Assembly: GCA_026023565.1 (NCBI GenBank)
Contig: JAPETS010000017.1
Coordinates: forward strand, 186,001-250,000
DNA: 64,000 nt
Direction of reading: 5' to 3'
Source: Cirrosporium novae-zelandiae
Lineage: Eukaryota
Part shown: in pieces, positions 3,462 to 47,058 of the stretch
Layout: every line of letters begins with the position of its first letter
How positions within the stretch are numbered: position 1 is the stretch's first letter
The notes under the pieces: model-generated
What the model was told of the DNA's origin: nothing
What the model saw: only the letters and a program-made list of their open reading frames with translations
Databases searched by the model: none
Made by a program: the position numbers and the translations under genes

Positions 3462-5191
3462 CATACTCCCTGAAGGCCATCATGCGCCCAGCACCGGACT
3501 AGTCTAGAAAATCTTTTAATTGTCAAGTTAAAAATGTGGCATTCCAAAAGCGATTGTGGGATTTAAAGATTCCGGGGAAACCGTTCATCGGATCTCCAAT
3601 TCCGCTTCCGATATGTTCGTTTCTCTACACGGCCTACACTTCCGTACACATATCGGGTACTCTATCCCGCGCCCTTATTCCCTGAATGGGAATATCTCTC
3701 CGTTATCTTTGCATTTCGCAACAAATAACCCTGGGATGGTTGGTGGTGGTGGCCCCGAAACAACTTGTGTTCTAGACATTCAATGTCTCGAGATTGTTCC
3801 CTTTTCGGGATTGGACAAAGCCGAAAGGAGGATGTGGTGGATCTCTATAATTATATATTGTTACGAAAATGGTACAGTACTTCAGCAATATCATCAATCT
3901 CTTTGCCCGGCTTCTGGGAGAATTTTACTGGAAGGTATGATTTGTCGGATGCCATAAATACTATACTAGATTGGGTTCGATTCCCAAGAGCAGCTAGTGA
4001 TTGGTCACAGCTTAGTATCAGTGTTCTTTCTATGATGAGTCTCCATCCCTTAATCTTTCTAGGACTGTTGCATATGGGGGGGGGGGCGCCCCAGAACCCT
4101 AACTAGCTATCAATTTCCAAGCTAAATATGTTACAGTATGCATACACTTAAAAAGAATTAGAGAGCGGGGGGGTTGGAACATGCATATCTATATTCTATT
4201 AAAGGCTAAGGGAAATGACAAGTGGGAAAAATAAAGAGGGTGTGGTGTGCTTGCTTGCTTATTCTTTCCAGAAGAGAAAGAATCCCCTCCCACCACCTCT
4301 TCAAAGAAAAGCGAAACAGTATTTTTTTTTTTGCGGGTTTTATTGGTAAGTAATATGCTTCCATACCATGCCATACTATCTAGACAAAGTCCCTACCATA
4401 CCTACCTCCTAAACACTTATCAGCTAGGAGCTAGGGGATTTTATAGCAAAAGAGATACAGTAGATGGCCCAAGGTTTGCAAGCAAGCAAGGTTTATATCA
4501 ATCAGCAATTTCTGGATAATTATCAACAAAAAAGCTCTTCTATCTAAACACAAACTTAACAAATCTTAACAAACTTTAACTAAACTCTTTTCCCTTTTTT
4601 TTCAATTAAATCACTTTACTTTATATATATAATTATATTCGAAAAGACGGTAACTAAAAAATAAAAATAAAAAATATGCATCAAGGTCCTTCAAAAAAGA
4701 AAATCTCTCTCCATTGGACACTGCTATTATTCAGTACAGAAGTCAAACCTCCCATTAATCCATATTACTTTGTTCGAAATGTATATTCGAAGAATTAACT
4801 ATATTTCATTAAAAAGATCAGTGTCCGGCCCTTGAAAGAAAGGACTAAACGGGATCCCATCAACACCTCTCCATGATGTTTTTTGGAATCCCTAATTTTT
4901 TCCCTTGATACCAATTCCCCCCTATCGAGTCATTCTTCATGTCCCAAAGTTTTTCTAAACCATACATAATCTCGAACCGAGTTTGCATCCAATGCTGTCC
5001 CTGGGAATCAATCAATCAATCTTCAATTCCTTGCCCTTGTTCCGTGTTTTCAATTTTCTTTTACAGTGTGTCCGGCCTTTGCTAAAGCTATCAACGAAAG
5101 ACATCCCATGTTAATTGTTAAAATTTAACGCCAGGTAATGTTCCCCGAGACCTCCCGGTCAATGGTGCTGTGATCTTAAAGCGTTTTGTTT

Positions 5192-10184: not shown

Positions 10185-13046
10185 TCAGGATTCCTACCCA
10201 TTAAGGCCTGCAGTGTCTACAGACAAACTGATCAGAGAGTCATTGGGCACACATACTTCATACATGTATGGCGATGCCTTTTTAGCTAATTATGGGGTAT
10301 AGTCCTTTCTCTGTGGTTCAAGCTCTAGTGAAGTACGCAATCTTCGAACCTGGTAGGGGGGTATTTAAATTCGTCATGACAAGGGGAGGGGACATGCTTA
10401 AGTTCTCCGAACCACACCAGTGCCTTCGAGAATGGGTTTAACCTAAGCCCAAAAGTGCCCAGGTGCTGTTCTTAAGACTTCATGAACTCGAGGCAAGGAG
10501 CAATCAGATTCAATAAATCCCTAGCCATTGAGAGTATACCCAATAAGCAAGGCTGACTGCCAGCCAAGTGAGTCTTTTCCATCTTTAGCAGCTACACCTA
10601 AGTTTCCAATGAGCTATTCGATACTCTATGGTTTAGCACCTTTTCTCCGGAGATTCCTCCGAAATTAATCTCCTGTTGGCTTCTCTTGAAGTACAAATGA
10701 CGACCTTGAGCCAGGCTTCATGAGTTCAACCAACTCTATGAAGCTTATTAGATCCACATACACGCAAGTGATCCCCTACCATCACTCTTTACCCTGTCCG
10801 CAGTGGTTCATCTGAGGATGGTTGGGATTTCCTGACGTAGAGACCATGAACATGAACGCTGCTGCTACAAATAAGATTGTGCTTGTAAAAGCCAACTGGA
10901 ATCTCGGCTTCTTTTTTTAGCAGAAATATTATTATTTCTTCAAAAGTTCTCACAATATTTTACGATCAACGGTCAAAGCTTAGAGCAGTTCAATCTCCTT
11001 AGAACATAGTATTTCTCAAACCGATAGGTTCTGGTGGAGAAAGAAGAGCATCCCTGAGTCGATTGGCTATCACTATCACATGGCCCATTAGAAGGAGAAA
11101 TTTGAATGCTTCGTCCAACATTGAATGAAAATTTCCAGTTGAAGGTAATTGTGACCTGTTTCTGGGTCTTAGATCCGCCGCCTTCCTCTTTCCTCTTTCT
11201 TTTTTTCTTCGGTTTGGAGACAACCCTAAAGCTGTCATGCAGACCGGCTCAACATCCTGGTTTACTTAATAACGGCACGAAAAGTGGATTGGCTTGCATG
11301 GGACAGAAGTCGACTTCCTTGTCAGCAAACGGGTAAAGCAGCCAAGCTTTCTCCGCAACATCCCTTCTCAGCCTCTGTGGCGCTTATTTTTGGACTGTGT
11401 ATGTGTTACTGTTGTGATTAAAGTAATAACTAAGCAAGCTGAGGGTGGAAAATAACAGCTTCTATCGTGTATCTAGCCGCCACCCTAGTTTACCATTTCA
11501 AGGAAGCTATGTCTCCCAGCTTCATTGCCGAGGCCCCAGTCCCTGCAGTAATCCATGATGATGGTTTGGGCGATATACAGTTCCTCGAATGGCGCCATGA
11601 CTCATTCTACCCTACTTTGGATTGAGTGTTGACATTTATCAACAAAAATCAGAAATACTCTTTCCGAGGACCGGAAGGATTGACTGTTGGCAATCTCGGT
11701 GCGATATGGTTGACTGGTTTCTAATGCGGCTGGTCCAACAAGGAAAGGCTTATTGCGGAACGACAGCCGACTATCATTAGTAGATGTCATCGGTTAAATC
11801 ATGGCAATTTCCCGCAGGTCATGGACAAAGTCTTTTGTGTGGCTTATATATCGGCCCCATGTTTTTTGTTTTGTTTTATTTTTGTTGTTGTTTTATTTTG
11901 TTTTGTTTTATTATGATTGGCTGAGGACTTACCAAAATGCTGGTTAGCCGGTACCACTGCCTTGTAGTGGAAGGAAAATCGTGTGATTGGGAGAGAATAA
12001 GTAATCATAAAATGAGGGATGTAGTGGTGCAGAGGTGTGCAGACACGACAATAACGGTCATGGCCCCAGTGGCCGCGATGGCTCCCAGTGGCTCCTAGTG
12101 GTGTCCCCAGTCGCAAGGCATCGTTTAAAATCCTGGGGGCTCTTGGTTATTGGCGGATTCAAGCATACGAATAGAAATCTACTCACTATCACGACACAAT
12201 GATGTAGGAATGCAAAAGGACAATCATCTCATGCCCGAGATGACATCTCAACCAGTTTTAGAGGCTGCATGAGAGATGCAAGAAATACGAGAATTAAAAT
12301 AATGTCAACGGCTTAAGACCAACGTCAGTGAGCATGAATAGCTCGACGGCAGCTAGCGGTTGACACTTAGACTGGAATTCCCCAGACCAAGATCGACGGC
12401 GGACTCATATCATATGATCTGGCTTTTTTTGTTAAGTTTTTCTAATGTCGACTTCGTTTTTAAAAAGAACAATAAAGTTGAGAATCCGGAACCTGTCACA
12501 GATGACAAAACAAATCAGCAGGACGGCTCACGAGAATCCCCTTTGGTCTTTCCGACCCTCGGATTTCTATTGATGCATCATCCCTGGTCATTGACACATG
12601 TTGTACGTCGTCGTTAACGACAGTCATCTTGGTTTATCCTATTTGGTTTCTGAATTGGAAGAATTAATTCGGCATTAATTATTTTTATCTTTGCATTATA
12701 CAGACCCGATAACGGGAGAGTCCGGGCTTTGGAAGAGAATACTTGAATGATGAGGAGGACAAGGAGAGATGGGGGGGAGAAAGAGAGAACGAGAGGGAGG
12801 GAGAAAGAGAGAACGAGAGGGAGGGAGAGGAAGAGGGAGAGGTGTCTTCCGGTGTGTCACAACATTTCATACACAAATACATTAATGCATCTCATAATGT
12901 GTATATTATTGGTTGAAATTCATAGTGTTAGAGTATTGGGGCCCTCGCCTCCCCCTGGTCTATGGCTTTTTTTTGGCAAGAAAAGAAAAAGAAAAGAAAA
13001 AGAGAAAAGGAAAAAAAAGTAAAAAAAGATAGTGAACGAGTCATTA

Positions 13047-14889
13047 GAGAGGTCGGACGGGTCTATGGACAGCCCTAGCTTTTAGCCGAAAACACCACAA
13101 CTTCTCAATTCGAGTACAATCGACTAATTTATATATTAATGTACATAGAATTGCCCCATGAAATTCTGCATTGGAGTAGGAGATTCCTGAGAATGCGATC
13201 TTTCCTTTTTAGGCAATTTTGGCCTTCCCCGCCCACGACCCCCCCGTTTTTTGACTTTATTTTGCTCCTGTTTCTCCCGCTGCCTCTGCAATTCGCGCTC
13301 GATACCTTGTTTGTCAGCAAATCGACTATTTAAATCGATTGCGATTTTAGTACGTTTTTTATTTTTGAAAATCTCGATTTCGGCTTATGTTTGCTTTAAT
13401 TGCAATTTTGTAAAGCTTTCGTCGAAACTTTATTGATCGAGCCTTTTCCCGGCCTTATTTAAGAACGTCCGGACGTTTCGGGTAATCGGTATATCCAAGT
13501 CAACCGCCAAGCCTACTAGCTGTTTTTTGTTTTTGGGGGTATTGAATATCGTCGGGGTGCTAGATTGGGGGAGCTGAGGGGATGGGGTAACCGCTCTAAG
13601 GGGGGGAATATTCGAATTTTTGAATTCGGGGGAAAAAAGCACTCGGTCAGGGTTAAAAGGATATAAACCAGCTTTTTTCCACCCAGCTGTAATTGTCCGA
13701 CGAGTCAGGTGTTCAATACGAGCTTGATTGTATATTCGCATAAAGCTCTCTTTCTTAACGGATACGGTATTATCCTATATAGAAAGATCTTCAATATCAC
13801 GTTTATATACGTTCTTCAGAGGGGAAAACACGTCTCTATCCAGAGACTGCAGCAAATAAGATGAATGAGCAGACAAATATAGATATTGAATATTGTTTTG
13901 GTGATATATCTATATGAACTCTGGGGTTATATGACTACCATGCCTATCAACCACTAGAATTCTAGTTTCGGGGAGCGTCAGCGAGGTCCGGGGAATAAAC
14001 ACCGTATTCAATTATTTGACCCCAATATTATTGCTCGTCCATCCATTCGGGGACACCGTATAATATAAATCGGGGATATAATTATCGAACCAAGACGTAA
14101 TAAACGACATTCCTTTGAATATAATAACACACGGAATATATTTCCCCCGTACAGACACGGTTTCCAATATAGAAGTCCAGTCACGGTTACCAGGTATAAC
14201 CTTAGTCGTAGACCGCTGATTTGCCCGCCCTACCACTTTAGTTGTATTATTGTATGTCCCTATTGAAACACCTATTTCGTTCATATTCCATATATTCTCC
14301 AGCTTCATATTGTACTCAGTTTTAACACGATCGAATAAAGTAAAAAAAGCAATAAGGTCTTGAGCCGTAATAGAGGTTCGGTCGGTCGAAATAGGACGAT
14401 TCGGAAGGATTTTGATGTCTGGATATCGATTCACAAATCGAGTCACCCATTTCTGACTAAGCTTGTTTGGACCGGCGATATATTTCGCGATATCGAGGAT
14501 GAAACGACGTATAATTTTGAATATTGGAGCTTGACCTCGATCATTTAGGATTTTTATCCAATCAACTATAGCGTTTTCCTGATCTTCAGACAAAATTTGC
14601 TGATTTGTATACGAATTACGCATTGCTCTAGCTTTCCCAGTTAATCGATTAGATAGAGTAGATCGGGTGACTCTATAAATCACCGCACAAGCTCGAAAAC
14701 TTGAAAAAATACCTTTTTTATAATCAGCAATTGCAGCTTGAAGAGCTGACTCATTAACAGATGAATTATAAAGTATGATGGTGGTGTTGAATTAAATAAA
14801 TTGATTGGGGGGTGAGTTGGGGATGAATTGAGAAGTTGTGGTGTTTTCGGCTAAAAGCTAGGGCTGTCCATAGACCCGTCCGACCTCTC
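13047..14889 (-). mobile_element. Fot1/pogo-family (Tc1/mariner superfamily, DD35D) DNA transposon, 1843 bp, RIP-inactivated
   Basis: Perfect 65-bp TIRs (13047-13111 and 14825-14889), TA target duplications at 13045-46 and 14890-91. The interrupted transposase has psq/CENP-B HTH motifs, NIWNMNEIG, SPNGWTSN and VVDRHGSH-x-QSLD (35 residues between the Asp residues). Confidence 0.96.
13130..14776 (-). pseudogene. Transposase pseudogene of the Fot1/pogo element
   Basis: One frame runs from a probably mutated start (ATA at 14774-14776, context CACCATCATA) through several in-frame TAA/TAG stops (e.g. 14012-14, 13910-12, 13430-32). The first catalytic D reads N. The 3' limit is approximate. Confidence 0.9.
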
Positions 14890-15949
14890 TAGTTGGTCTC
14901 AAATGGTTCGAAGGGATTTGGTTAACCGGTACAGCGGTTCTATCGTAAAGCTTTCCCCCTGTCAAATTTCTTACTTTCATACACAAACTACAATTACAAT
15001 ACATGATCTGGTTAAAGTTAACAAACCGGATAGCTCCCGAGAGACTAGTTCCATATGTTCCTGCACCGGCCGTGGCTTAAATAAGTCTTGGACATTCCTG
15101 GATATTGGGATTTGGCCGGTCAGAGCGCGAACGGCTATCCGGGGTATGACCAGAAGGAATAAGCCTTATATGGGGCCTTTCAGGCGGGGCCCTTCGTCTT
15201 GGATTTTACCCATCATGATTAAGTTGAGGGATTATCTATTAGATGACAACCACCAAGCCTGAAAAAAAATAAAAATAAAACTGGAGACCACCAACGATAA
15301 GGGAACCGCTTCTTTCGTTCGGAGCGATTGTGCAAGCCCCGAGTGGGGTTGACGTATTTAGTTGATATGTTGGCAAGGAACCGCCGAGATGAACAGTGGC
15401 TACGTTTAAAAGGAGTAAAGTACCAAAGTAAATGGCGGAGATATACATGATTAGGTTAGGTTAGGTGGTGATGAAGATGATGAAGATGATGAAGATGATG
15501 AAGATGATGAATGATGATGGAGGAGGAGGAGGAGGGGTGAGCTCCCAAGGAAATCCAGGATAATGGATCATCGGTTTATCAGTCTATCGTGTCCTTTTGG
15601 TACAGTAGTGATGGACAATCGATGGAGGGGATAGGAGGGGATAGGAGGGAATAGCAAGGTAATAGTAGTGACGGACAGTAAGTAGAGTAGTATGTATGTG
15701 TGTGTGTATATTGGTAGTTTAGTAGCGATCACTGACTGATTGATTGATGAGCAAGATGAGCAAGATGAGCCAGTGGGGGGGGGGGGGAGTATACTCAGTA
15801 GTAAGTAAATGATGAACAGCAGCACTGGGCAGCGGACAAACTGGGCATTGGGGGGGGCATTTGCATTTGGGCATTTGGGCAACTATGTTTTAGCCGATAA
15901 AAACTCGATTCCGGGGGGGAGTAGCTTGGGGATAGATGGGGGTAGCTAA

Positions 15950-17126: not shown

Positions 17127-18739
17127 ATGTCCTCGAGGCCTCCTCCACTATCAACAGGTCCAACAAATCTTCCTTCAACCTCTGTCCTACCTGGGACGAC
17201 CATGGCGGAGACAATAGTACCAATTCAGCCAGGCCTTTTCATGGCTCACCCGGCTTCCTTTCCTAGTCCCATTCATCCACCACTTCATCCACAACCTTCA
17301 TTCCTACACCCTCCGACGATACCTCCTCGACTTGCACGACCCGATTCCCATGGATTCGGTTCTATATTCCACGACCCTCCTCCACCTTGGGAGTCGGGAC
17401 CGTCCCATCTGTCCCATCAACCTGGGCCACTGTCAAGGTGGAGGCCACCACCTGCCGAACCTCCAATTGCATCGCCAGCGCAGACATCACACCCGATTAC
17501 TCACCAATCATCATATTACCCAATTCGCTCCCCCGCAAGAGATGGAGTGGTGCCACCGTCTTCAGGCTACCAGCCGACCAGAATGTCGCCAAGTCAAAGT
17601 TTGAGGTAAGGAAAGTGGAGGCGATAAGCGCAAAAAGGTGCTGAAGGGGAGCATAGATACCCTCCACTTCCATCGATGAGTTATCCACAGCATCAAGTAT
17701 CGCACAGTCCCCAGACTCAGAGAGGTTCAATTCAATCTATCATCAACCCACCACCACCACAAGCAACTGCCCCTGACATATCAATGTCGCCTTTATATGC
17801 CCATTCAAAGCCTAGGCGGGTTGTCCTTTCAATTCAATGACGGGAAGATTGCCCTGTATATTAATGTCATCTAGTCCTTCTCGTTACCGTCTTCATATCC
17901 GTCAGCAGCCCATAGCAGCCCGTGCCTGTGGTTATGGAGAGCGCGATCGCCGGGTCATTGACCCACCTCCAATAATTCAACTTTTCTTATCTGATTTCGA
18001 TCCCAACAGTGACGAGGACTTGAGTCTTGTTCAATACCAGTTCAATATCGTCCACTGTTCCCTCTACTCGCATCCAGACAATCAACCCCCAGCCGACGCA
18101 AGCCAGCTGCATGATAGCAACACAGGGCGCGTCACTCGGCGGCTGATGGGCTCGCTTGTTGGCTCTCCCCTGACGGGGATTGACCCAGACCCAGCCAGCT
18201 CGCCTCTTTCTCAATACCTTCTCCCGTCCTTAGGCGGTGATCCTTCGCGCGTTTCCAATTATGTGAAAACGGTTCCTTCAACCTTTTATATATTTCCAGA
18301 TCTCTCGTGCCGGACCCAGGGCGTTTACTGCCTTCATTTTAAAGTTGTGCGTGCTGGGGTTGAGATGGCATCAAAAGGAGGACGGAGCTCCATGGAAGCA
18401 GAGGTTGTCAGCGACCCCTTTGTAGTCTTTCCTGCAAAAGATTTCCCTGGCATGAAACCTAGTTCCATATTGACAAAAGGCATGAAGGCCATGGGTGCTG
18501 CGGTGACGCTGAAAAAGGGGAAAGGAGGGCCTGTAGCTAAGAAAACACCAGGCAAGAGGTCAGCTGGAGAAGATCCGGCGGAAGAAGATGATGAGGGAGC
18601 TGAAAGTATAATTGAGGAGGAGGTTAAGGGAGAAGGGAGTCGAAGCGGCTCCGTAGTTATTGCCAAGAAGCAGAGGCGGAGTGGATCCGGTGCCGGCGCT
18701 CCGCGTGGAATGAACCCACAACGCGCTTGGGAGATCTAG
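17127..18739 (+). CDS. velC: Velvet-domain regulator, VelC type, with Pro-rich N-terminus; 3 exons
   Basis: Velvet motifs RYRLHIRQQPIAARACGYGERDRRVIDPPPIIQL, FYIFPDLSCRTQGVYCLHFK and SDPFVVFPAKDFPGM in a C-terminal velvet domain. Exons 17127-17605, 17657-17815, 17875-18739; the second intron is predicted GC-AG. Confidence 0.85.
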
Positions 18740-19499
18740 GGTAGGACAATTGATTCCCATTTGACGGGAGAGACTGGACTCTGGGCACAGTTAAGGGCCC
18801 GAGGAACGATAAATTCAACCATTATGATTTACGATCGAAACGTGAAACAGAACGACTAGGGTGACTCCAGCCGCCGTGATATAAGGAGGATTGAAATTCA
18901 TTTATCCTCTCGTTTTCATAAATTCATCTACTTTTCTTCTATCATTTGTTTTTTTAGCCTTGGTCTTTTATGATATACCAAAGAACTACGCCAGTGTACC
19001 CCTTCTGCTAGATACCATCTCTCACCTCTTCTACTTCTCAACTCTTCTACTTCTCACCTCTTCTACTTCTCTCATCTCTTCTACATTTCTCTCCTCAAGC
19101 CATCCTCGGAACTTCGGACCAATCTATGCTCGTTGTTTCCCTTCTCTGACGGACCAGTTCCTCACGAGAAGCAGGAAAACGAAAACGGAAATAGAGGTCT
19201 CTTGCGCAGGGCGCACCAGCACAAAATTATCACGAGAGTTATGTTTTCTCTTTGGATGACGTTCATGCACACTACAACACTTGACACATTTCAAATGCTT
19301 CTATTTATTCTTCTTCTAAGATGGGATTATTGGATAAACGATATGATACCATGGCCATGTTTTTCTAAGCGATTCTTTATTTTATAATCATTTATCACAC
19401 GTATGGATGCATCAAGGGGGGACAGCAAGCACTTTTGAGCCCCTTTCGTTTTCTTTTTTTTCGTTCACTTTTGAAACTCAATGAGTCTATTTAGTATTC

Positions 19500-21400
19500 A
19501 TTATTATCACGGGAAGGTGACGAAGCAATACGAACGGGACGGAACGGCATGAAAAGGCATGGAACGGGCATGGTCATGGACATGGAATAGCATGAAAACA
19601 CGGAACGCTTGATAGATTTGGCTCTCGGGAATCGGAATCGGAATTTGGGAAATGTGAATGGGGGGAGGAACAAACAATCAAACACGATGTGATCCAGTGA
19701 CTAGCATCTGCATTTAACTTTTGCATTTGCGTTTAAGCCAACTGGAAAGGAAAAGGAAGAGGTCTTGAATGGAGTGGAAATATCCTTTATTGTGTCGGGT
19801 TTTGGTCTTTTCTTTTTTTTTTTATAAAAAAAAAGAAAAAAACAAGATTGAGAAATCGAAATGATGGCATGGACACAATCTATCTACACTATTCATACAC
19901 CTATCCTTATGTTTACAGATTTACAGCTATACACTTTCTTTCTCAAGGTTACAACAGAATCAGGAGTACAGCACGTAGAGGGAAGGAGAGGGGGAGGGGA
20001 AAGGAAAACCATCATCAAGACTACCACCACCATCACCACCATTACCACCATCACATCATCATCATCTCCCCACCATCCACCAATCTCCCACCACCAGCCC
20101 ACCCTACCTTACCTTACCTTACCCCTCATCCCCCCCCCCCCAGACATCCCTCCCCAGACCCCCCAGACCCCCAGACCCCAATATATAATACGGATTCGCA
20201 TATTAAGCCCCTCCCTTATCTTAGCCTACGTGGTATGGTGGTGGTGGTAGGTGAAAAAACCAGAAACAAAAGCCAAAAGCGAGCGGCACCCGCCTAATTG
20301 TAAATCATCACCCCACGTCCGCACATCATATACATACATACGCACTCGCAGACGGATGGCGGATGGTGGAGATGGATGGATGGATGAACGGGGTTAATTA
20401 TGTATGTAATGTATGTTAGATGGATATGAATATGGATGGGTAAGATCTTGTAATTAAGATCTAGATTTGAAAAATTTGAAACGAAACGAAACGAAACGAA
20501 ACGAAACGAAAAGGTGAAGGGACCCCCCCCACCCCTCTCCTCTTGAAAAGAAAGGTGAAGAGAATGGAATGAAAATGAAACGAAACGAAATGAAATGAAA
20601 TAGATCTTGTAATTACCTGTTACTATTACTATAGGTACAGTACATGTACAAGGTAAGGTAAGAGTAATTATCCAAACAGAACCGAACCGAACCGAAATCC
20701 GTATGTATGTATGTATGTATATAACCACCCAACTCCCCTCCCCTCTCAAACCAAACCAAAAAAAACACATCCTCTTTTTCCCTCTCTTTTCATAACTCGC
20801 AATAACTGACTTACTAATTATTATAAAACCTAACAAAAAAAATATCATATCCCTAGAAAAAAAAGAAAAAAAAGAAAAAAAAGATTTTATTTTTTTTATT
20901 TCATATTATATGGATACCGATTGATACCTATACCGATACTAATACTGTAAATATATAGACTATATAAATATTTATTATATATACCCCCCCTAATACCTTC
21001 CCCCTTAGTCCCTAAGATTCCCAGTTCCAGCCCTTATTGCATCCCCCCCTCCCTTAGGTTTCCCAAATTCCCCATAAAATAAAAAAGGCCCTTTTTTTTC
21101 TCTATTTGTTTGCTTTGTATTATTTGTTTTTGCATTTATTTCTTAATTTGTGTTTTTAGTCTATTTATTAATTACTTAGTCTAACAATCATTAAATCATT
21201 ATATCATTAACCAAACCTCAAACCAGACTGGACTAAACAATCACTTGTTTATTTATTTACTCTTTATGTTATATATAATGTACTTATAACTATATCTATG
21301 TAGAAAGGTAGGAAGGTAGGAAGAAGATAGCTACTTGGTAGATAGATAGATAGATAGGTAGATAGATAGGTAGATAGAGTATCTAGGTAAGATATTGAGA
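19500..21400. repeat. Microsatellite / low-complexity tract
   Basis: (CAC/CAT)n 20023-20065, (GAAAC)n 20478-20510, (TATG)n 20702-20720, (TAGA)n 21339-21377 and poly-A/T runs; ORFs here are only repeat translations. Confidence 0.85.
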
Positions 21401-21417
21401 CCATCTATTTATAAATT

Positions 21418-23836
21418 AATCCAGATCTGAATCCGGATTTCCCATCTCGATCCCCCAAGATCCATCCGTCCATACGTACGTAAATCTATACTTTTTTCTT
21501 GTTTCTTGTTTCTCAAGCCCCTCCCCCCCTGACCGGACCCGAATATATCCGTTTTTTTCTTTTTTTTTGAGGGGGTTTCCGAGAGTGGGGGATTCGTGAG
21601 GTTGGGTTAGGGGTCGCATGCGGGAGGTGTGTAGGGTAGTGTCAGGGGGGGTTGGTTTATATGGGGTTAATGTGTGTGATGTTGGGGTGGTGGTGTGGTG
21701 GTGGGCGCGAGGCAAGGGGTATAATATGTGTGTATATAGTAAGTACAGTATTTACATACATACATACAAGTATCAATTCCTTTCGTTCGTTGTTTTTGCG
21801 TACCTGCTCACATAATTACATACTTACCTACATACCTACTCTATCCACACACAAGTAATTATTAAAATATCCTTTCTTATTACTTATGTATTATATGTAC
21901 AGAACAACCAACAACCAACAACCCATACATATATATACACACATATCTAGCCAATAAGTAAACAAATAAACAAGTATCTACCTAGGTTATCTACAGTATT
22001 AATCATGATTATAATACCATGACCATCAGCATCATTAGCAACAACAACAACACTTATTTATACACAATGAATACCCACTATATACTCACTGTACTCACCT
22101 TACTATACTACACACATACAAACCCCTTTCTAATTAACCAGTAGTCTAGTCTACTATAATGAATGAAATCAATAGCCCCAACCTCCAAACCCACAAGTCC
22201 CACACACACAAAAAAAGCAAACATACACACACCAAAATCCCAGGACCATGGATATGGGTTCTTGGTTCTCTTTATTAAGACAAACACAGGAGGGACACGA
22301 CACAACACAACAGGCAAATGAAAGTGGAAAAATTGGAAAGACGAAAACGGATTACTGATTACTGGTAATTACGGCATAAGAAAAAAAAAATACACCTATC
22401 TAGTCTTTTTTTTTCCCATTTTTTTTTTGGTTGGGTATACCAATACCAATTCCAATACCAAAAAAAATCAAAAAGCAGGTATCTATCACGTATCTATTAA
22501 TCAAGCGTTTTAGATAACTAAAATGGAATTTTGGGTCCCCCCCTCTTTACCCCAACCTCCCATTGGAAAAATTACAGTAATTAGCGAGTTTCTTGTGAAA
22601 CGTTAAAAGGAAAGGAAGGGAAAGAAAGGGAAAGGAAGGGAAAGGAAAGGAAAAAAAAGAAAAAAAAGAGAAAACCAGGTTTATGGTATTTTATGTATGT
22701 ATGTATGTATATGTTATTGGCGTTTTGGAAATTCACGGGGGTATGAAGGGATGGGATAGGATGGATGGATGAGTGGATGTTTGAGAAGGAGATAGGATAG
22801 GATAGGATAGGAGTTATTAGGTGAATCTATAGATTATTTGTATAGTACAATACATGTATGTTATATACGTACGTATGCTGTATAAGTATCCGTCCATCCA
22901 TCCATCCATCCATACATCCACCTACCCATCCCTATTACACACCCTCATATATCCCTAAACCATCCACCCCCCCAAAAACAAAAAAATGACACATAACCGC
23001 CCCATTCCCCCTTCCTCCGCCCCTTCCTTCCTGCAAGTAAGTTTCATAAAAGCAAATGCATGCCATGCATGCCATATGCCATAAGGAGGAGGGGTTCACT
23101 TATGTATGTAGGCGAAAAAACCGAATCTGAAACCGGGACTGGGACTGGAACTGGAACTGGGGAGTGAAGAAGGGAAAGGAACCGAATGGGCTCGGGACAC
23201 GATAATGACAATAACAACAACGATCCTGGAATGGATGAATGGCGAGATGGGAAGGAGAGCCTCGAAGGGTGAAGTGAAATGAGGCTTACATGCACATGCA
23301 CATACTCTACTCTTACTAAAAGCGTTGAATCCCGGTTTCGGGAAAAGGGAAAAGGGAAAAGCGCGAATGGATGTGTCCTGGGTGGGAAGGGAAGGAAGGG
23401 GATCCAAAAATCTTGAATACCAGGGATTGGATCCGAGCGATAGACAGGGGAAAATGTGCGCAAATTAAGATCTCAATGTTGTTGGTTTTCGGGAAGGGAG
23501 TAAGTTAGGCAAAAAACCAAAACCTGGAAATGTTTGAGAGAGTTTTCGAAACGGGCGGAAGCGAATATACACATACATACATTCCAAGGAAGGAAGGAAG
23601 AAAAGTCGTGTGCTTTGATTGGTATGTATGCGATATGTGGGGGATATAATATACAGAATAGGAAACGCACGCAAGGTTTGCAACAAACAACTCTTTGGAG
23701 AATCATTCATTTGGGAACCAACCGCAAGAAGAGTTAGTTTCTGAAAACCCTGGGGTTTGGATATCCTTGACCATGATAAACCCGCCAGCCAGGTAAAAGG
23801 CCCAAAAAGATAACGGTCTGGGTTCGGGTCTGGGTT
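21418..23836 (+). ncRNA. Candidate telomerase RNA (TER), ~2.4 kb
   Basis: Terminal 22-bp helix 21418-21439/23815-23836 with 7 G-U pairs (favours the + strand). Nested helices 21439-49/23243-53, 21471-82/22866-77 and 21510-16/22781-87. Pseudoknot-like element 22581-22739. CR4/5-like ...GCAAG-A-AGAG-UUAGU-UUCU-G at 23724-23743. Template not identified. Confidence 0.55.
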
Positions 23837-24338
23837 TGAGTGGGAGTTGTCATATCATTTGTCTAATCTGTGTCTTCCTTTGCTGCGTCATGTCCGTTGT
23901 GTTGCGTTGGCATGTATGTAAGGAATGTGAGGTGTGGTGGTGTGTGTGTGCACAAGGAAAAAAAAAAGAAAAAAGAGAAAGGGGATATTACCATGAACCT
24001 GGATCCGAAATCAAATCCGAATCAGGCAGTTGGACTCGATGGCCACAATCGAACAAGATAGGATACAAGGATCGAATTCTTCCGATACCCATCTCCAATT
24101 CATCCCTACTCTCATCACGCTCATCTACCCTAATGCAGAAATAGAAATAGAAAAGAAAAAATGCATACGTGCACACATGAACACAACCCCATGACAACCC
24201 CATCAACCCCATCATCTCAAAAAATACCGCCAACCATCCATATATCCAAGCCAAGGAACATCTATGTGGGCCCCCATATGCACACCAAACCACAGCCAAC
24301 CCCGATTAAACATCCATTAAACAACCCGATCCATCTTT

Positions 24339-27300
24339 TTAGATAAACCTCACCTCCTCCAATAACCCAGCCCTTACCTGCACCAGCGCCGCCAGCTCAA
24401 GAATAAATTCTTGGAGTAATATAGCGTTTGTGAGAAGGTGGTTGAGTGAGACTTCTTTCACATTCTTGCTATTCTGACCGTCGCCCTTGTGGGAATTGAG
24501 ACCTTCCGTTGTTTCGGGTTCGGCATCCTTGGATGCATCCTCGGGGGTTTCGTCTTGGTTATTGTTATTGTTTGTCTCTCCTGCAGATGATCCCTGGTCA
24601 ATGGAATTGAATGCAGCAAGGGTGTGGTGGCCCTCGTTCCCGCTTTTGATGCTGCTGGTTTCACTTTCCCCGTATACGCTTAGAGGAGGACCATCGGAAG
24701 CGCTTCTGTTCTCGACATCCCCTCTTCCCACTGGAATCATGATTTTCCTTCTTAGAAGTTCATCATTTTCACCAAACAGCGAGTCTCCCAACGATCTCTT
24801 CCTGTGATGTTGTGGGGGTGCTAGCATTCTCTTGAACGAGGACTGGGACTTTGATTTCCCAATTTCACTTCCCGGCATTGCTGGCGAGCGAGACCTTACC
24901 GTCGCTTTGGACGAGAGACCAAGTTTCCCCGACAGTGAACTTGAATTGTCCGCGTCAAGATCGTTACGTTCACGAACACGTAGAGGGCGTCCAGGAGAAC
25001 TAGACCGGGATAGCGGATCACCAAGTATACGCTGCGAAATAGACTCTAAGCGATGGCTACTCGGCGAAGAAACAAAGGGTCGGTTTACAGATTCTTCAGA
25101 GCGGCGAGGCGTTTGAGGAGTTTGGTTGAAACCAGCTCTAGTATTAGGTGAACGACTACTAGCCCGAGATTTAACCTTGTCGCTGAAAAAGAGTTCCCTG
25201 CGTTGTGCAAGAAGAGAATCAAAGTTTGGAATCTCTGCTCGCCATACGTCAAGCATGCTGACAGTATCTTGTAGTCGAGCAATGACAGGTGGTGTCTTTT
25301 CCTTTGACCATGATGGAGCTTGTCGTATCTTTTTAATGGAATGGAGGTGTGCTTGTGCAGGACTGTTTGCTAAGCTAAGGAGTTCATCGAGCTCCTTTAG
25401 CTCAGAACCTAGATCGTCATCCTGAGCATCCTCGTCTACTTCATCAACATCATACTCATAGGCAAAAGGATCAACGAGCAGCCAGCCTTCAAGGTGCATA
25501 TGCGCACAGGATGCCAGGTCTGTGATGGCTCCAGTCAAACTAAGGTTGACTTCCACGCTATTGCTAAAGAAGGTATCCAACAGCATTAGTAAAGATTTTA
25601 GTACTGGATCTTCTGCTAGCAGTCTATGAGGTATCACGGCGCGTGGACCAAAGTTCGCCTGGTCTGCTTCTTTTGATTTCCAATCCCCATAATTAGAAGC
25701 TAGGACTTGCATTGTGCAGGGATGGCTTTCAATAAGGCTCATTTCATCTTTAAGATGGGCATCATAAGATATTTCAAGGCTCTCGTCCTGAGTTATAGAC
25801 TCCGCAAGGCCCATAAAAAGCTCCAACTCTGCGTGAAGCCCACCGATCGTTCGCTGAGATTCAGCCGCTGCCGGTAGGACTTTCAACATAGTGAACATGG
25901 CATATTTGTGAAATTTTCGAAGAATGATAGACACTAGTTTGAGTGTCGCAGCAACAGTCTGCTGGCTTTTAGATCGAAGTCCCCCCTTTATAAGGTCAAC
26001 CAGAGTAAAAAGGGTTGGCGAATCTTGCTCATCCTTTTCGGCCACCATTTGGAGTAGTAGAAGGGACTTCCGACGACTCTCAGACACACGCCTCCTTCTT
26101 GATGATGATGACTTTGGAACGGGCTTTGGATCGTCGGGTAAAGCGAGGAGGTAGTGTAAGATGCTATGAATCAAATCAGGATGGTCTATTGACTCAAGTA
26201 TTCGGCGAAGATAGTTAAAGACGGCAGCTTGTGAGCCACCATCAAAGTCAGAAGACTCTAAAAGGGATGGGTATCTGAACATCAGTTAGCGTGGGTAAAC
26301 TACACGTTTGAACGGACTGTCTGACAATAACTGCTGTAAGAACAAAGCCTGAAAATGGTCTAGTAGCGTCTGTTTAATTTCGTACGAGGGACAGTGCTCC
26401 AGCACATCCTGCCAGAACATCAGATGTGATATAAAGGTTTCCATTGACCCATAATATTCCCGATGGCTTTCTACATCATGCTCAGACGGTTGCGTTGCTT
26501 TATAGTCGGAATATGCTAGTACAGGAGGCAGTTGTCCAGACGGAATGGTATACTCGGCTTTTCTATTTCAGGTCAGCGGACATAACACACCTTACTATAT
26601 ATCTAAACCGTACCTGCTTAGCTGGCTGTACTGGGCTCCAAGACCGCTTGCCATTAACGTCGCGAGATCACTTTCGACTATCCATCTCTCCAAGTCCTCC
26701 GAGTGAGCAGAAGCTTCAATCATATAGAGAACACCCATCCGGGCAAACTCTCCGATCTTCCCTTCATGATGCCACAAGTCCCGTAGCACGTAAAATAGGG
26801 GGAAGTCGTCTTTGTGTAGAGCTCCGACGAATTTAGACCTCTCGTTATCGTCGAGATCTTTTCCATCTTGTGACCCCGAGTTGGAGAAAGAGAACCATGC
26901 AGATAAAAGTTCCGGTTGTAGTCTGATTTTAGTAGCAATTCCAAACAGCAGTTCTGTTATTCTCGCAATTGTGTCTTCTGATACTATGACTCCATTGGGG
27001 CCCGAAATATGTTCTGCAAAGTTCATCAATGCTTTGGAAAACCCAGGATTGCTAACAAACTCCTCCTGCTCGCTGTCAACCAAGTCATTGAAGAGGGTTA
27101 TTGTCAAATCGATAATGGCTTCATCGTCAACAGATGTCGCGATGGCGGATATGGTCTCGTAAACCCGCCATGTGAAAGCGGCGGAAAGGGATACATGAGG
27201 AGCGGGAAGTCGAGTTTCATCGTCGAGGATTTTAACCAGGTCATGGAGGCATTTGCGAATCGTGTCTGTCGCAACATAATCTTTGGATAGCAAGCCTGAT

Positions 27301-27556
27301 GCTGCTTGCCATGTGTTCTTTCCATATATTAGATATAATGACCTCAGGCCCAAAACAGCGAGAAGGGTCTCACCAGAAGTTTTCCGTAGATCTTTTTGAA
27401 TTGAGAGAGTCGTTGTTGAGGTCTATTGATTAAAGATTGCTTGCTAGAGGGCGAAGCTCCGATGCCTCCAATGAGGCGGGACCACTGGAACCTATGCTTT
27501 AGTACACGTTTCGTTACAAAATGTCATGTAGAAATGGGAGAACATACAAAGTCCAT
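24339..27556 (-). CDS. FHIP / FAM160 / RAI16-like protein (FTS-Hook-FHIP complex subunit); multi-exon
   Basis: A 9-nt first exon MDF (27548-27556) splices to WSRLIGG. Motifs FPLFY, GEFARMG.LY, SDLATLMASGLGA.YSQLSR, FFSNSVEVNLSLTG.I..LA and C-terminal VSLNHLLTNAILLQEFILELAALVQVRAGL. Confidence 0.88.
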
Positions 27557-37349: not shown

Positions 37350-37489
37350 ACGCGTTCCCACGATACTATAGAGGTTACGTGCTATCTTACGCGAACCCTT
37401 GCTATTTACTACAGTTAGCGTGCCTCAGGCATTAAACTCGCGTAGACCCGCTTATCGTCCAAGCTTCAAAGCCAAAATCTTAACCCTAA
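37350..37489. promoter_or_regulatory. PRI2 promoter with MCB-type elements, a TGCCTCAGGCA palindrome and a TAACCCTAA telobox
   Basis: ACGCGT 37350-55, ACGCGA 37389-94, TCGCGT 37438-43, TGCCTCAGGCA 37421-31, TAACCCTAA 37481-89. MCB boxes are typical of G1/S DNA-replication genes. Confidence 0.6.
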
Positions 37490-37996
37490 TCGACGGACTT
37501 AAATAGTATAAACCCCGCAGCCCATAGACTAATCCTTCCTAATGTTCTAGCCAGCTTCCAATACTAATTGTTAAGCGTACTTCAGTATATCTCGAGATGA
37601 TTTTTGCATCAGCAGAGAGATTCAAAATGAGTGTTTGTCAACTACTACTATATATAACTTCGCATCTACAGTTTCGCTTTCAATAAACATTGTGAAGACC
37701 GAAAACCCAAAATGTGAACAGTGTTATACATAGGCAACCGGTCAGTATTAGTAGCAGCAGGATACATTAATTGTCAATTATGGATTAGCTCTGTTGGTAG
37801 TCCAATCCTGATTAAACCTGGATTAAGTGCTAAGAATGCATGATTTGAAAACAAATATCTACAGTAGCGAAAGTACGTTCAACTTGTCAGCAGTGGGCAC
37901 AAGGCAGACGGACATCGATGGCCGAAAGACCGAATATATTCGAGAATATATATTCTATAGCATGCTCACAAGACTACAGAAATCCATCAACCTAAA

Positions 37997-39703
37997 ATGG
38001 CGTCTTCATCCATTTTGCTGAAAAATAGTACGGTTCTTACCCATGGCAAAGACGATCATGTCAACTTCCTCCAGAATATAGACCTTCTAATCGAGGGAAC
38101 CACCATCAAGCAGATGGAATAGATGTCCCACCATAAAAGGATACCAGAATCATTGATTGTTCTGGCAAACTTATTTCTCCCGGCTTCGTCGATACGGTAG
38201 GTGCTCTTCAAAAACAAATAGCATTACGAGTTTCAAGCTCATCCATTCTTAGCACTACCATGCATGGCAAACTCAGCTCAAGGGCCGCCATGGAAATGAT
38301 ATCCTATTTGATTACTTTGCCAATGGTATGTCATTCTTTATTACCATATTACTCTGTGGCTGCTCACCCGAATTCTCCAGGGGGCTTTCGGTCATACAAT
38401 TATACTGCAGGAGATGCCTTTTGGGGACAGCTCGGTGCTTTGCTTGAAGCTCTTGATAAGGGCACAACAACGTGGTGGATTTTGTGAACATGACATATTC
38501 ACCGGAACATGGTAAAAAATTATCATGTGGAATCCCCAGAATTTAGCTGGCTCCTGATAGCAAAGCAGGCTGTCTCGGCAACGATTGCCTCTAGAATCAG
38601 ATCCACTTTTAGTTATAGCATGCATCAAGGAATGGGCCGGCGTTAAGGTAAAAATGAACGAAGAAATATTCCTAGATTGGTGAATGGCTACACTTGAAGA
38701 GTTGACAAAAGGCCAGCCATACGGAAATGGTAGAGTGTTCATTGGACTAAGTTTCGATGGACTGTGGCTTCCAAAGGGAAAAGTGATTGAAGTTATAACG
38801 AAAGCGCGCAAATTAAGGGTTAAAGTCATCACGACACACTATGTTTGCGTGCCTGTCGCTGGTAAGGAACCGCATTTTCTTGCCAACATATTGAACTCTC
38901 GGTAGATCACAGGGAAAGTACCCGTCTACTAACAAAACATAACAGGAAGGACTTCGGCCGTGTCTCTTTTACCGGACTATAGCCTCCTGGATTCCGATAT
39001 TCTCTTCGCCCATGCCACCAATCCTTCTCCAATCGACGCTCCCCTCTCGTCAAGTCAAATGCTCACATCTCCAGCACTCCTGAAATGGAAGTTCACATGG
39101 CCCAAGGCTCCCCATCTGCTTCCGTCCTGACTACTTTCCCCTCTCATCCCTTGGTATTGACTGCCATAGTGGCGTGTCTGCTTCAATTCCTTACCAAATG
39201 CGGTTTGGACTATAGTATACGTGGGGGGTGCAGAATGAGAAGTTCTTAGAAAAATGGAAATCCCCAAAGCAGTTAGATTTCCTTGTGGAACAAGCGTTTA
39301 ACCTGGGAACGATCATGGAAACTAGGGCGGTAGGCATGGAGAAGGAGATATGAAGCTTAGAGGTCGGAAAGAGGGCCGATGTTGTGATATTTGATGGCAT
39401 GAGTCCAGCAATGATTTGCGCAGCCATCAAGGATCCTGTTGCTGCCATTGTGCTGCATTCAACGCCGGCAGATATTGATACCGTGACTGTCAATGGTGTC
39501 ATAGGAAAGAAGGGGGGAAACTAGTGTCGACGAAGACAGAAGATGGCAAAACTCTCCATTTGGAAGAAATTGCAGCAGAATTGATCAAAAGTCAGGAGAA
39601 GATTGAGGAGAGGATTGAGGAGAGGATTAGAGAAGGGGATATAGAGGCGGGGAGACGGCATACAATGGATCTATTCAGAATTAATCCGAATAACCTTGTA
39701 TAG
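37997..39703 (+). pseudogene. Amidohydrolase (Atz/Trz, MTA/SAH deaminase-like) pseudogene
   Basis: Recognisable motifs SILLKN.TVL, IIDCSGKLISPGFVDT|HYHAWQTQLKGRH, AFNLGT, SLEVGKRADVVIFD and DPVAAIVLHS, broken by in-frame stops (TAG 38120-22, TGA 38681-83, TGA 39351-53) and frameshifts. Confidence 0.85.
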
Positions 39704-45744: not shown

Positions 45745-47058
45745 TTAATCAAATGGAATGATCCTAAGCCCTTCATGTCCTCCCATCTTCTTCCTGTGCT
45801 CCTGTAACGCTGCCACGGAGCTTGGAACCTTGATTCCGCAACAATCTCCTAGTCCCGTATGATTGTGGCCTTTATGTTGATGATGATGATGATCGTCCCC
45901 TCCTTCTCCTTCTTCTTCCTCTTCGACCTCGTTGCTTCCTTCCTCTCCACTGATTCCTTCGCTCATGCCGTCTTCCCCTGGCAGTAGCCCTCCAAATAGA
46001 AAGTGCTGCATGACGGCTCTCTTGCCCAGCACCTCCTTGACGAACAATCTTTTCATTCCGTTCTCCACCTTTTCCCAGCTTTTCGATCCGGAAATGTCGT
46101 CTAGCATTGGACTATGCCAGCGTAGCCCTTGTACGCTTTTGGAAGCATTGATGTGCGCAATCTGGTCGAGGTAAAAGTAGTTTGGTCCTTCCTCTGCCAG
46201 TGTTAATGCGCTATGGATTCCTTTGGGCGTAATGTAGCGATGATGTAGGAGCTGTGAGGATCCAAATAGGAAGGGCATGAAAACGTAGTCGTCGAGACCC
46301 CAGACACCATGTGAGCCCGCGGGTTCTAGATAGTAGGTTGCCTGTAGGTTTCGGATGAGAGTCAGATATGCGGGATAGACACGGAGGACGAGGGTGGGGA
46401 AGTCCTTTTTGGGGATTAAGCCCAGGAGATACAGGCAGAGGAGGTAGGCGAGGAACGCGAGCTCATGGCCGGAGCCAAAGTCCAAGCGCAGAGCAGAGCC
46501 TAACGAGGAGAGGAAGTAGGGTGCCACGGCTGCAGTGGCGGGGCCTGTGGGATGGGGCCCGCCTTTGGGGAATATTGGTTCATGCAGCGCGGGAGAGAGG
46601 TCGGTGAGCGCGTCCAGGTAGGTTCGAAAAGCGACGTTACCGAAGCGGGAGGAGTTTTTGACTGGGGGGCATTCGTTGATCAGGTCATTGGCTTTGTGTA
46701 GAAGATCGAGGACGTGCGTGAGCGTAGGATTTGTGGATTCTGTGGGAGGGGGGACCGCAGATATAGGTGTATCGATCACCGAGTCTGTGAGGGCGAAGAT
46801 CCATGACAGTAAAAGTTTGTATGTCGATGATTGAAGGTAGATCTGGTGATCCTGCGGGTTAAGAATTCGGCGAACTGGTTCGTCATAGAAGGAGGCAGAT
46901 AATGGCGGGGGAGCAGGAAGAGGTGTGGAGGTAGGAACTGGAATTAGATCAGCAGGCGGGGAGGCCTTGCGATGGCGGGGTGTCAGTTTGGGGATTTTAG
47001 CGGAGAGAAGAGGAGGGATAGAAGAGGAGGGAGATGATTTAGTTGATGATGGCTCCAT
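45745..47058 (-). CDS. RRD2: PP2A phosphatase activator PTPA, Rrd2/Ypa2 type
   Basis: SRFGN..FR, RLDFGSGHEL.F, YYLEPAGSHGVWGLDDY.F.PFLFGSSQL, LRWHSPMLDDIS, GDCCGIKVPS, IPFD*. Confidence 0.9.
   Translation of the reverse strand: MEPSSTKSSPSSSIPPLLSAKIPKLTPRHRKASPPADLIPVPTSTPLPAPPPLSASFYDEPVRRILNPQDHQIYLQSSTYKLLLSWIFALTDSVIDTPISAVPPPTESTNPTLTHVLDLLHKANDLINECPPVKNSSRFGNVAFRTYLDALTDLSPALHEPIFPKGGPHPTGPATAAVAPYFLSSLGSALRLDFGSGHELAFLAYLLCLYLLGLIPKKDFPTLVLRVYPAYLTLIRNLQATYYLEPAGSHGVWGLDDYVFMPFLFGSSQLLHHRYITPKGIHSALTLAEEGPNYFYLDQIAHINASKSVQGLRWHSPMLDDISGSKSWEKVENGMKRLFVKEVLGKRAVMQHFLFGGLLPGEDGMSEGISGEEGSNEVEEEEEGEGGDDHHHHQHKGHNHTGLGDCCGIKVPSSVAALQEHRKKMGGHEGLRIIPFD

Follow-up and report, generated by a model that had tools for sequence, protein, structure and literature searches.

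The 64 kb window of Cirrosporium novae-zelandiae contig JAPETS010000017.1 analysed here (all coordinates are window positions) contains a 5.6 kb spacer, 18740-24338, between two convergent genes whose 3' ends face each other. An earlier note on this DNA had placed a candidate telomerase RNA (TER) on the + strand of 21450-22580 and, finding no canonical CCCTAA template there, had proposed that either the fungus has a divergent telomere repeat or the TER call or its strand is wrong. Our analysis leads us to conclude, with high confidence, that 21450-22580 is part of a non-coding, low-complexity spacer, that the proposed templates are chance words and that no TER gene is present. The earlier observation is accurate yet uninformative: if there is no TER gene here, the missing + strand CCCUAA template tells nothing about the telomere repeat of the organism. 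The features on which the argument turns are the following.

17837-18739, + strand: Velvet factor gene on the left flank (Pfam Velvet, E = 1.6e-49), with its 3' end toward the spacer.
18740-24338, no strand: gene-free, low-complexity spacer, lying between the stops of the Velvet frame (18739) and the RAI16-like frame (24339).
19010-19022, - strand: P6.1-like AGAGATGGTATCT, with one mismatch that breaks the 4-bp stem; the sole P6.1-like motif on the minus strand in the spacer.
21449-21463, + strand: GATCCCCCAAGATCC, proposed template for a 10-nt repeat (GATCC...GATCC), one of nine spacing-10 repeats in 21450-22580.
21560-21720, + strand: G/T-rich block holding GGGTTAGGG, with 81 G in 161 nt and a GC skew of +0.77 in 21550-21699.
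21604-21612, - strand: CCCUAACCC (GGGTTAGGG on +), the sole canonical-type template candidate in the spacer and one of five TTAGGG-type 9-mer sites in the window.
22289-22296, + strand: 5' arm of the proposed boundary helix, GGAGGGAC, pairing at 7 of 8 positions with 22535-22542.
22535-22542, + strand: 3' arm of the same helix, GTCCCCCC, pairing at 7 of 8 positions with 22289-22296.
22549-22557, + strand: ACCCCAACC, proposed TTGGGG template, one of four TTGGGG-type sites in the window.
23730-23742, + strand: P6.1-like AGAGTTAGTTTCT, with one mismatch and an NUNGN loop; the hairpin is unformed in the fold of 23650-23800 (z = +1.37).
24339-27353, - strand: RAI16-like/DUF5917 gene on the right flank, with at least two exons and its 3' end toward the spacer.

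The words from which the non-standard repeat had been argued are all present as described. The + strand of 21450-22580 lacks CCCTAA (13 copies occur on this strand in the window, the nearest at 21010 and 22953), ACCCCAACC and GATCCCCCAAGATCC both carry terminal direct repeats, and GGGTTAGGG at 21604-21612 has the G-strand on + and thus the wrong polarity for a + strand template. While the words and coordinates of the proposed + strand templates are accurate, their frequency is not above chance. TTGGGG-type sites are found at 22549, 30790, 36305 and 45650, and the corresponding 9-mers give 8 overlapping hits at these 4 sites, compared to a mean of 3.44 in dinucleotide shuffles of the window, 5 of 100 of which reach 8. 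Direct repeats of 5 nt at a spacing of 10 occupy 296 positions in the window, including 102 in the spacer and 9 within 21450-22580, and period-6 9-mers, whose first and last 3 nt are identical, occupy 57 of the 1122 positions of that range; 10 of these are rich in C and lack G. ACCCCAACC and GATCCCCCAAGATCC are, with little room for doubt, chance words at chance frequency in low-complexity DNA, and a non-standard telomere repeat templated by either one finds no support at this locus.

A boundary helix had also been suggested to precede ACCCCAACC. Its two arms are present and paired as listed above (the single mismatch is A.C, and the helix ends 6 nt before ACCCCAACC), but it lies outside the minimum-energy fold of + 22270-22600, which is itself no more stable than shuffled sequence (z = -0.01; equalled by 47 of 100 shuffles). 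When random sites were examined for an 8-nt helix that pairs at 7 or more of its 8 positions and ends 2-10 nt upstream, 736 of 1500 had one on one strand and 758 of 1500 on the other, as did 759 of 1500 within the spacer. Since about 50% of random sites have an equal boundary helix, the proposed helix is uninformative.

A TER is defined by more than its template, and we therefore examined both strands for the remaining features. As described in PMC3592445, PMC3603654 and PMC4993307, these include a boundary helix about 2 nt upstream of the template (stable and about 8 bp long in Aspergillus) and a triple-helix pseudoknot. The three-way junction (CR4/5-like) is highly conserved; its P6.1 stem has 4 bp and its NUNGN loop 5 nt (loop rule as given in PMC3592445). 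The 3' end is generated by spliceosomal cleavage and is marked by a U-rich Sm-like site, AUAAGU or AUACGU, and a branch point (PMC3603654, PMC4993307), signals that in A. oryzae lie some 1.6-1.8 kb 3' of the template (PMC3592445, PMC3603654, PMC4993307).

Searches with Rfam 15 gave no match at the gathering score in the whole window, and no telomerase family was found among the 7 weak hits at E up to 10 in the whole window or among the 19 weak hits at E up to 10 in 19500-24500. The folding energy of 21440-22439 corresponded to z = -1.12 on the + strand and z = -1.89 on the minus strand (20 shuffles each); none of the folds tested, on + or minus, clearly surpasses shuffled sequence in stability. 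P6.1-like motifs were sought across the window using the pattern AGAGNTNGNCTCT with at most one mismatch, its stem letters being those of vertebrate P6.1. The pattern occurs at the chance rate, with 4 hits compared to 4.54 expected, a count that holds for these stem letters only. AGAGTTAGTTTCT lies 1.2 kb downstream of ACCCCAACC, while AGAGATGGTATCT lies 2.6 kb downstream of minus-strand CCCUAACCC, with the Velvet stop codon about 270 nt away, and the pattern search combined with local folding yielded no credible P6/P6.1 three-way junction on either strand.

A strict 3'-end composite, consisting of a U tract followed by AUAAGU or AUACGU and then by a branch point within 150 nt, was found at none of the 44 5'-splice-site-like sites in the window. 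The + strand of the spacer has five strict 5'-splice-site-like words, and only the one at 21472, at the 5' end, has a branch point. A more permissive form of the composite occurs 19 times in the window and once in the spacer, at 23576-23580 on the minus strand, which is upstream rather than downstream of CCCUAACCC; the + strand of the spacer has none. The Aspergillus-type arrangement of GGAAYC and template (a feature taken from Table 1 of PMC10767889) was not found in the spacer. As judged by eye, U and A tracts are plentiful on both strands of the spacer, and pairings between them carry no information here because inverted repeats over the spacer number 373 pairs in 5.7 kb. With no Rfam telomerase match, clearly stable fold, credible P6.1 or 3'-end signals on either strand, the second option offered in the earlier note, an erroneous TER call, is the one favoured by our data, and the call is most likely wrong on both strands.

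Comparison to known systems leads to the same view. Similarities to the TERs of Neurospora crassa (2049 nt) and Aspergillus consist of a non-coding stretch of similar length order in a Pezizomycotina-like genome, the 9-nt CCCUAACCC of the minus strand, and U and A tracts from which helices can be drawn. On the other hand, the locus lacks an Rfam telomerase match, a stable boundary helix, a credible P6/P6.1 junction and the 3'-end module, its fold is not clearly more stable than shuffles and its template-like words are at chance level. A divergent telomere repeat is possible in principle for this organism, because Aspergillus exceptions to TTAGGG exist, but this locus gives no evidence for one.

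The composition of the spacer suggests how such words could come about. Tandem repeats number 64 rows in 6 kb over the spacer, its 2 kb bins have the lowest GC content of the window (0.382 and 0.411) and are the most compressible (0.293 and 0.307, compared to 0.32-0.34 elsewhere in the window), and GC skew swings from -0.83 to +0.77 between 150-nt bins. All nine open frames tested in the spacer are without a Pfam match at E up to 0.1 and show no transposon protein homology, and all spacer open frames of at least 50 residues have low-complexity translations. No long repeat joins the spacer to other parts of the window, and no second copy of it was found there. The spacer can be viewed as a patchwork of microsatellites, homopolymer tracts and blocks of purines or pyrimidines with strand asymmetry, built mainly, we infer, through replication slippage on weakly constrained DNA, possibly atop an old repeat that repeat-induced point mutation (RIP) has degraded. 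DNA of this kind would be expected to give rise by chance, on both strands, to short C-rich words with terminal direct repeats, short complementary arms and pseudoknot-like U and A tracts.

With regard to RIP, 20001-22000 is the sole RIP-like bin among the 32 2-kb bins of the window (TpA/ApT 1.02, (CpA+TpG)/(ApC+GpT) 0.91), with thresholds of above 0.89 and below 1.03, respectively. The signal may come from the relic of a degraded repeat, or it may be an artefact of microsatellites that contain TA. The spacer resembles the microsatellite-rich, AT-biased intergenic DNA and RIP relics of filamentous fungi in its dense tandem repeats, lowest GC content, RIP-like 20-22 kb segment and absence of coding signal, and differs from RIP-degraded repeat relics in having no transposon protein homology and no second copy in the window.

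Several points weigh against reading the region as chance words in a non-coding spacer. That Rfam 15 holds telomerase families, including an ascomycete one, is our assumption. In addition, Rfam models and motif rules based on Aspergillus and Neurospora could miss a real TER because TERs diverge fast and this lineage is remote from sampled fungi. The minus strand has the lower folding energy of the two strands in 21440-22439, with 1 of 20 shuffles folding as well, and it carries a perfect 9-mer of the (CCCTAA)n series in the largest stretch of non-coding DNA poor in open reading frames in the surroundings. The proposed origin of the spacer through slippage or RIP is drawn from composition alone, its repeat origin in particular, because there is neither transposon homology nor a second copy, and microsatellites such as (TATG)n or (TAGA)n can mimic RIP indices. 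Finally, for a compact fungal genome 5.6 kb is a long distance between two 3' ends and may conceal a transcript that has escaped annotation.

The last of these points bears on the alternative that survives best, in which the spacer holds an unannotated, non-telomerase transcript, either a lineage-specific small gene or a long non-coding RNA. Besides the unusual length of the gap between the two 3' ends, this proposal draws on an intron-like signal on the minus strand at 23580-23500, where GTATGT is followed 68-72 nt later by GCCTAAC, located between the adjacent minus-strand frames 23468-23854 and 23047-23472. Both frames, however, are among the nine without a Pfam match, and the translations of the open frames are of low complexity, so we consider such a transcript unlikely. 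As an observation in its own right, 23047-23854 on the minus strand may represent a spliced, unannotated transcript downstream of the RAI16-like gene.

A second alternative concerns the G-rich block at 21560-21720, which could be a decayed interstitial telomere-like tract, the relic of an old chromosome-end event rather than a template. Half of its sequence is G (81 of 161 bases), and in local alignment to (TTAGGG)n it scores 28, compared to 16.7 +/- 4.1 for composition-matched shuffles, of which 2 of 200 reach 28, while TTGGGG, TTAGGGG, TGGGG and TTGGG give nothing above shuffles. The block is thus similar to interstitial telomeric sequences in aligning to (TTAGGG)n somewhat better than shuffled sequence. 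It differs from them in having no tandem array, a longest exact telomeric word of only 9 nt and statistics that become marginal after correction, as the five units tested turn a nominal 1% into about 5%. Furthermore, the alignment is gapped and about 70 nt long, and other kinds of G-rich low-complexity block are abundant nearby. The block may be taken as a marginal hint of a decayed telomere-like tract, an origin that we hold to be quite improbable. Elsewhere in the window, the longest telomere-like tandem is a (TTAGG)n microsatellite of about three units at 15451-15467, which we take to be an ordinary microsatellite.

The earlier note had also pointed to the minus strand as the place to look should the + strand call fail. 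In this alternative, CCCUAACCC (21612-21604) would be the canonical 9-nt TTAGGG template of a minus-strand TER (read as ACCCCUAACCC, TTAGGGG). In filamentous-fungal TERs the template is longer than one telomere repeat, does not exceed two and has a CCCUAA core (PMC3603654, PMC3592445); that of N. crassa has 9 nt (PMC3592445), and CCCUAA is conserved in 13 of 13 Aspergillus-group TERs (PMC3603654). CCCUAACCC fits this form, is located in non-coding DNA and has no pairing partner in the minimum-energy fold, and the 1 kb fold of this strand has the z of -1.89 given above. Against this, TTAGGG-type 9-mers give 6 hits at 5 sites in the window compared to a mean of 2.43, and 8 of 100 dinucleotide shuffles reach 6. 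The minimum-energy fold of - 21400-21780 has no stable helix adjoining CCCUAACCC on its 5' side (z = -0.23), although this is the fold of a single sequence and a long-range helix is possible. By eye, the minus strand 3' of CCCUAACCC has A tracts and no U tract for about 520 nt, and A tracts ahead of the first U tract are the wrong order for a U-A.U triple-helix pseudoknot.

The remaining downstream features fare no better: the only P6.1-like motif on this strand of the spacer is the stem-broken one 2.6 kb away that adjoins the Velvet stop codon, the downstream sequence has no AUAAGU or AUACGU accompanied by a branch point (the permissive site at 23576-23580 being upstream of the template), and there is no Rfam telomerase hit. 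Tested as an alternative template, CCCUAACCC therefore turned out to be a chance-level 9-mer without any of the downstream TER features examined. Among sequencing runs, a single DNA data set, given as 36 million letters and possibly the source sample, was listed as containing this stretch, with no RNA data set beside it; two more runs of the same study had next to none of the words sampled. Because a genome of some tens of megabases has a single TER gene, we infer that the prior for a TER in any given 5.6 kb is a few in ten thousand; by the same reasoning, a chance-level 9-mer would lift this prior only about five-fold for the minus strand, and the negative tests would lower it again. We regard a minus-strand TER as very improbable. 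A separate search for the 20-mer around CCCUAACCC in metagenomes matched one contig of 1403 nt, GC-rich, coding-like and bacterial-looking by eye, which shared only these 20 nt and was treated as a chance match.

Weaker still is the original proposal of a + strand TER with a non-canonical template, either ACCCCAACC (TTGGGG) or GATCCCCCAAGATCC (a 10-nt repeat of the GGATCTTGGG type), and hence a divergent telomere repeat. In its favour, both words exist with their terminal direct repeats, a P6.1-like word with an NUNGN loop lies 1.2 kb downstream at 23730-23742, and repeats other than TTAGGG are known in Pezizomycotina, namely TTAGGGTCAACA in A. oryzae (PMC3603654) and TTATTGGGG in A. restrictus (Table 1 of PMC10767889), the exceptions reported for Aspergillus including a CCCCAA-containing one (PMC3603654, PMC10767889). 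However, the range holds 10 C-rich period-6 9-mers and 9 spacing-10 repeats and the window 4 TTGGGG-type sites, the boundary helix is uninformative and outside the fold, the P6.1-like word is unfolded, neither the strict nor the permissive scan found a 3'-end composite downstream, Rfam gave no telomerase hit, and TTAGGG is described as the rule in filamentous fungi (PMC4993307). Taken together, these results leave the proposal with a negligible probability. The related idea of a highly divergent TER of a deep-branching filamentous ascomycete, with a non-TTAGGG template such as ACCCCAACC (TTGGGG) and invisible to models based on Neurospora and Aspergillus, is just as far-fetched; if true, it would add a telomere repeat and a telomerase RNA, both new, from a fungal lineage with little sampling.

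The preferred reading of the region as chance words in a non-coding spacer carries a more general caution. Microsatellite-rich, strand-asymmetric spacers yield template-like words, boundary helices and U/A "pseudoknots" by chance on both strands, and a TER call in such a spacer needs the telomere repeat of the organism, expression data or conservation before its template is interpreted.

The genes surrounding the spacer place it in the DNA of a filamentous ascomycete, Pezizomycotina-like in character. The right-hand neighbour matches Pfam RAI16-like in two pieces (24339-26282, E = 5.7e-13; 26598-27422, E = 5.1e-37), and the window further encodes TTI1, PTPA, Vps23, the DNA primase large subunit, IDO and a CFEM protein. 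In a search of 5.8 billion proteins, the nearest relative of the PTPA protein (45745-47058) was only 53% identical, with top matches spread evenly over Sordariomycetes, Leotiomycetes, Dothideomycetes and lichen-forming classes. The genome therefore belongs to a sparsely sampled ascomycete lineage, without alignable non-coding relatives in the collections.

No part of the window supports a TER. In Aspergillus, the neighbours of the TER gene are said to include a "vacuolar protein sorting protein" and a "peptidyl-prolyl cis-trans isomerase" in a figure legend of PMC3603654, and Vps23 and PTPA at 45.7-50.3 kb were considered as a possible case of synteny; the names alone match and no 9-mer template lies nearby. 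Two further template-like words in non-coding DNA were rejected as TER sites. The first, AACCCTAAC (4095-4103, + strand), gave no Rfam telomerase hit, has a fold with z = +0.97 and leaves too little space for a TER core; within 4078-4352, a G11-CGCCCC word lies 3 nt before it and a U12 tract with GTAAGT about 250 nt downstream. The second, TAACCCTAA at 37481, also without an Rfam telomerase hit, lies in the roughly 700 bp that separate the gene for the DNA primase large subunit from a broken, amidohydrolase-like frame. This frame (37961-39524) is interrupted by stops over several frames and is probably a pseudogene or a heavily interrupted gene, with its C-terminal piece alone giving a weak match to Pfam Amidohydro_1 (E = 0.001, under the cut-off).

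Apart from these sites, the window contains a 1,847-bp element at 13045-14891 with perfect 67-nt terminal inverted repeats (13045-13111 and 14825-14891). Within it lies a minus-strand frame (14015-14791) that encodes a Tc5 transposase DNA-binding domain (E = 7e-08), and the element has the appearance of a young DNA transposon of the pogo/Tc5 type or of a deletion derivative of such a transposon.

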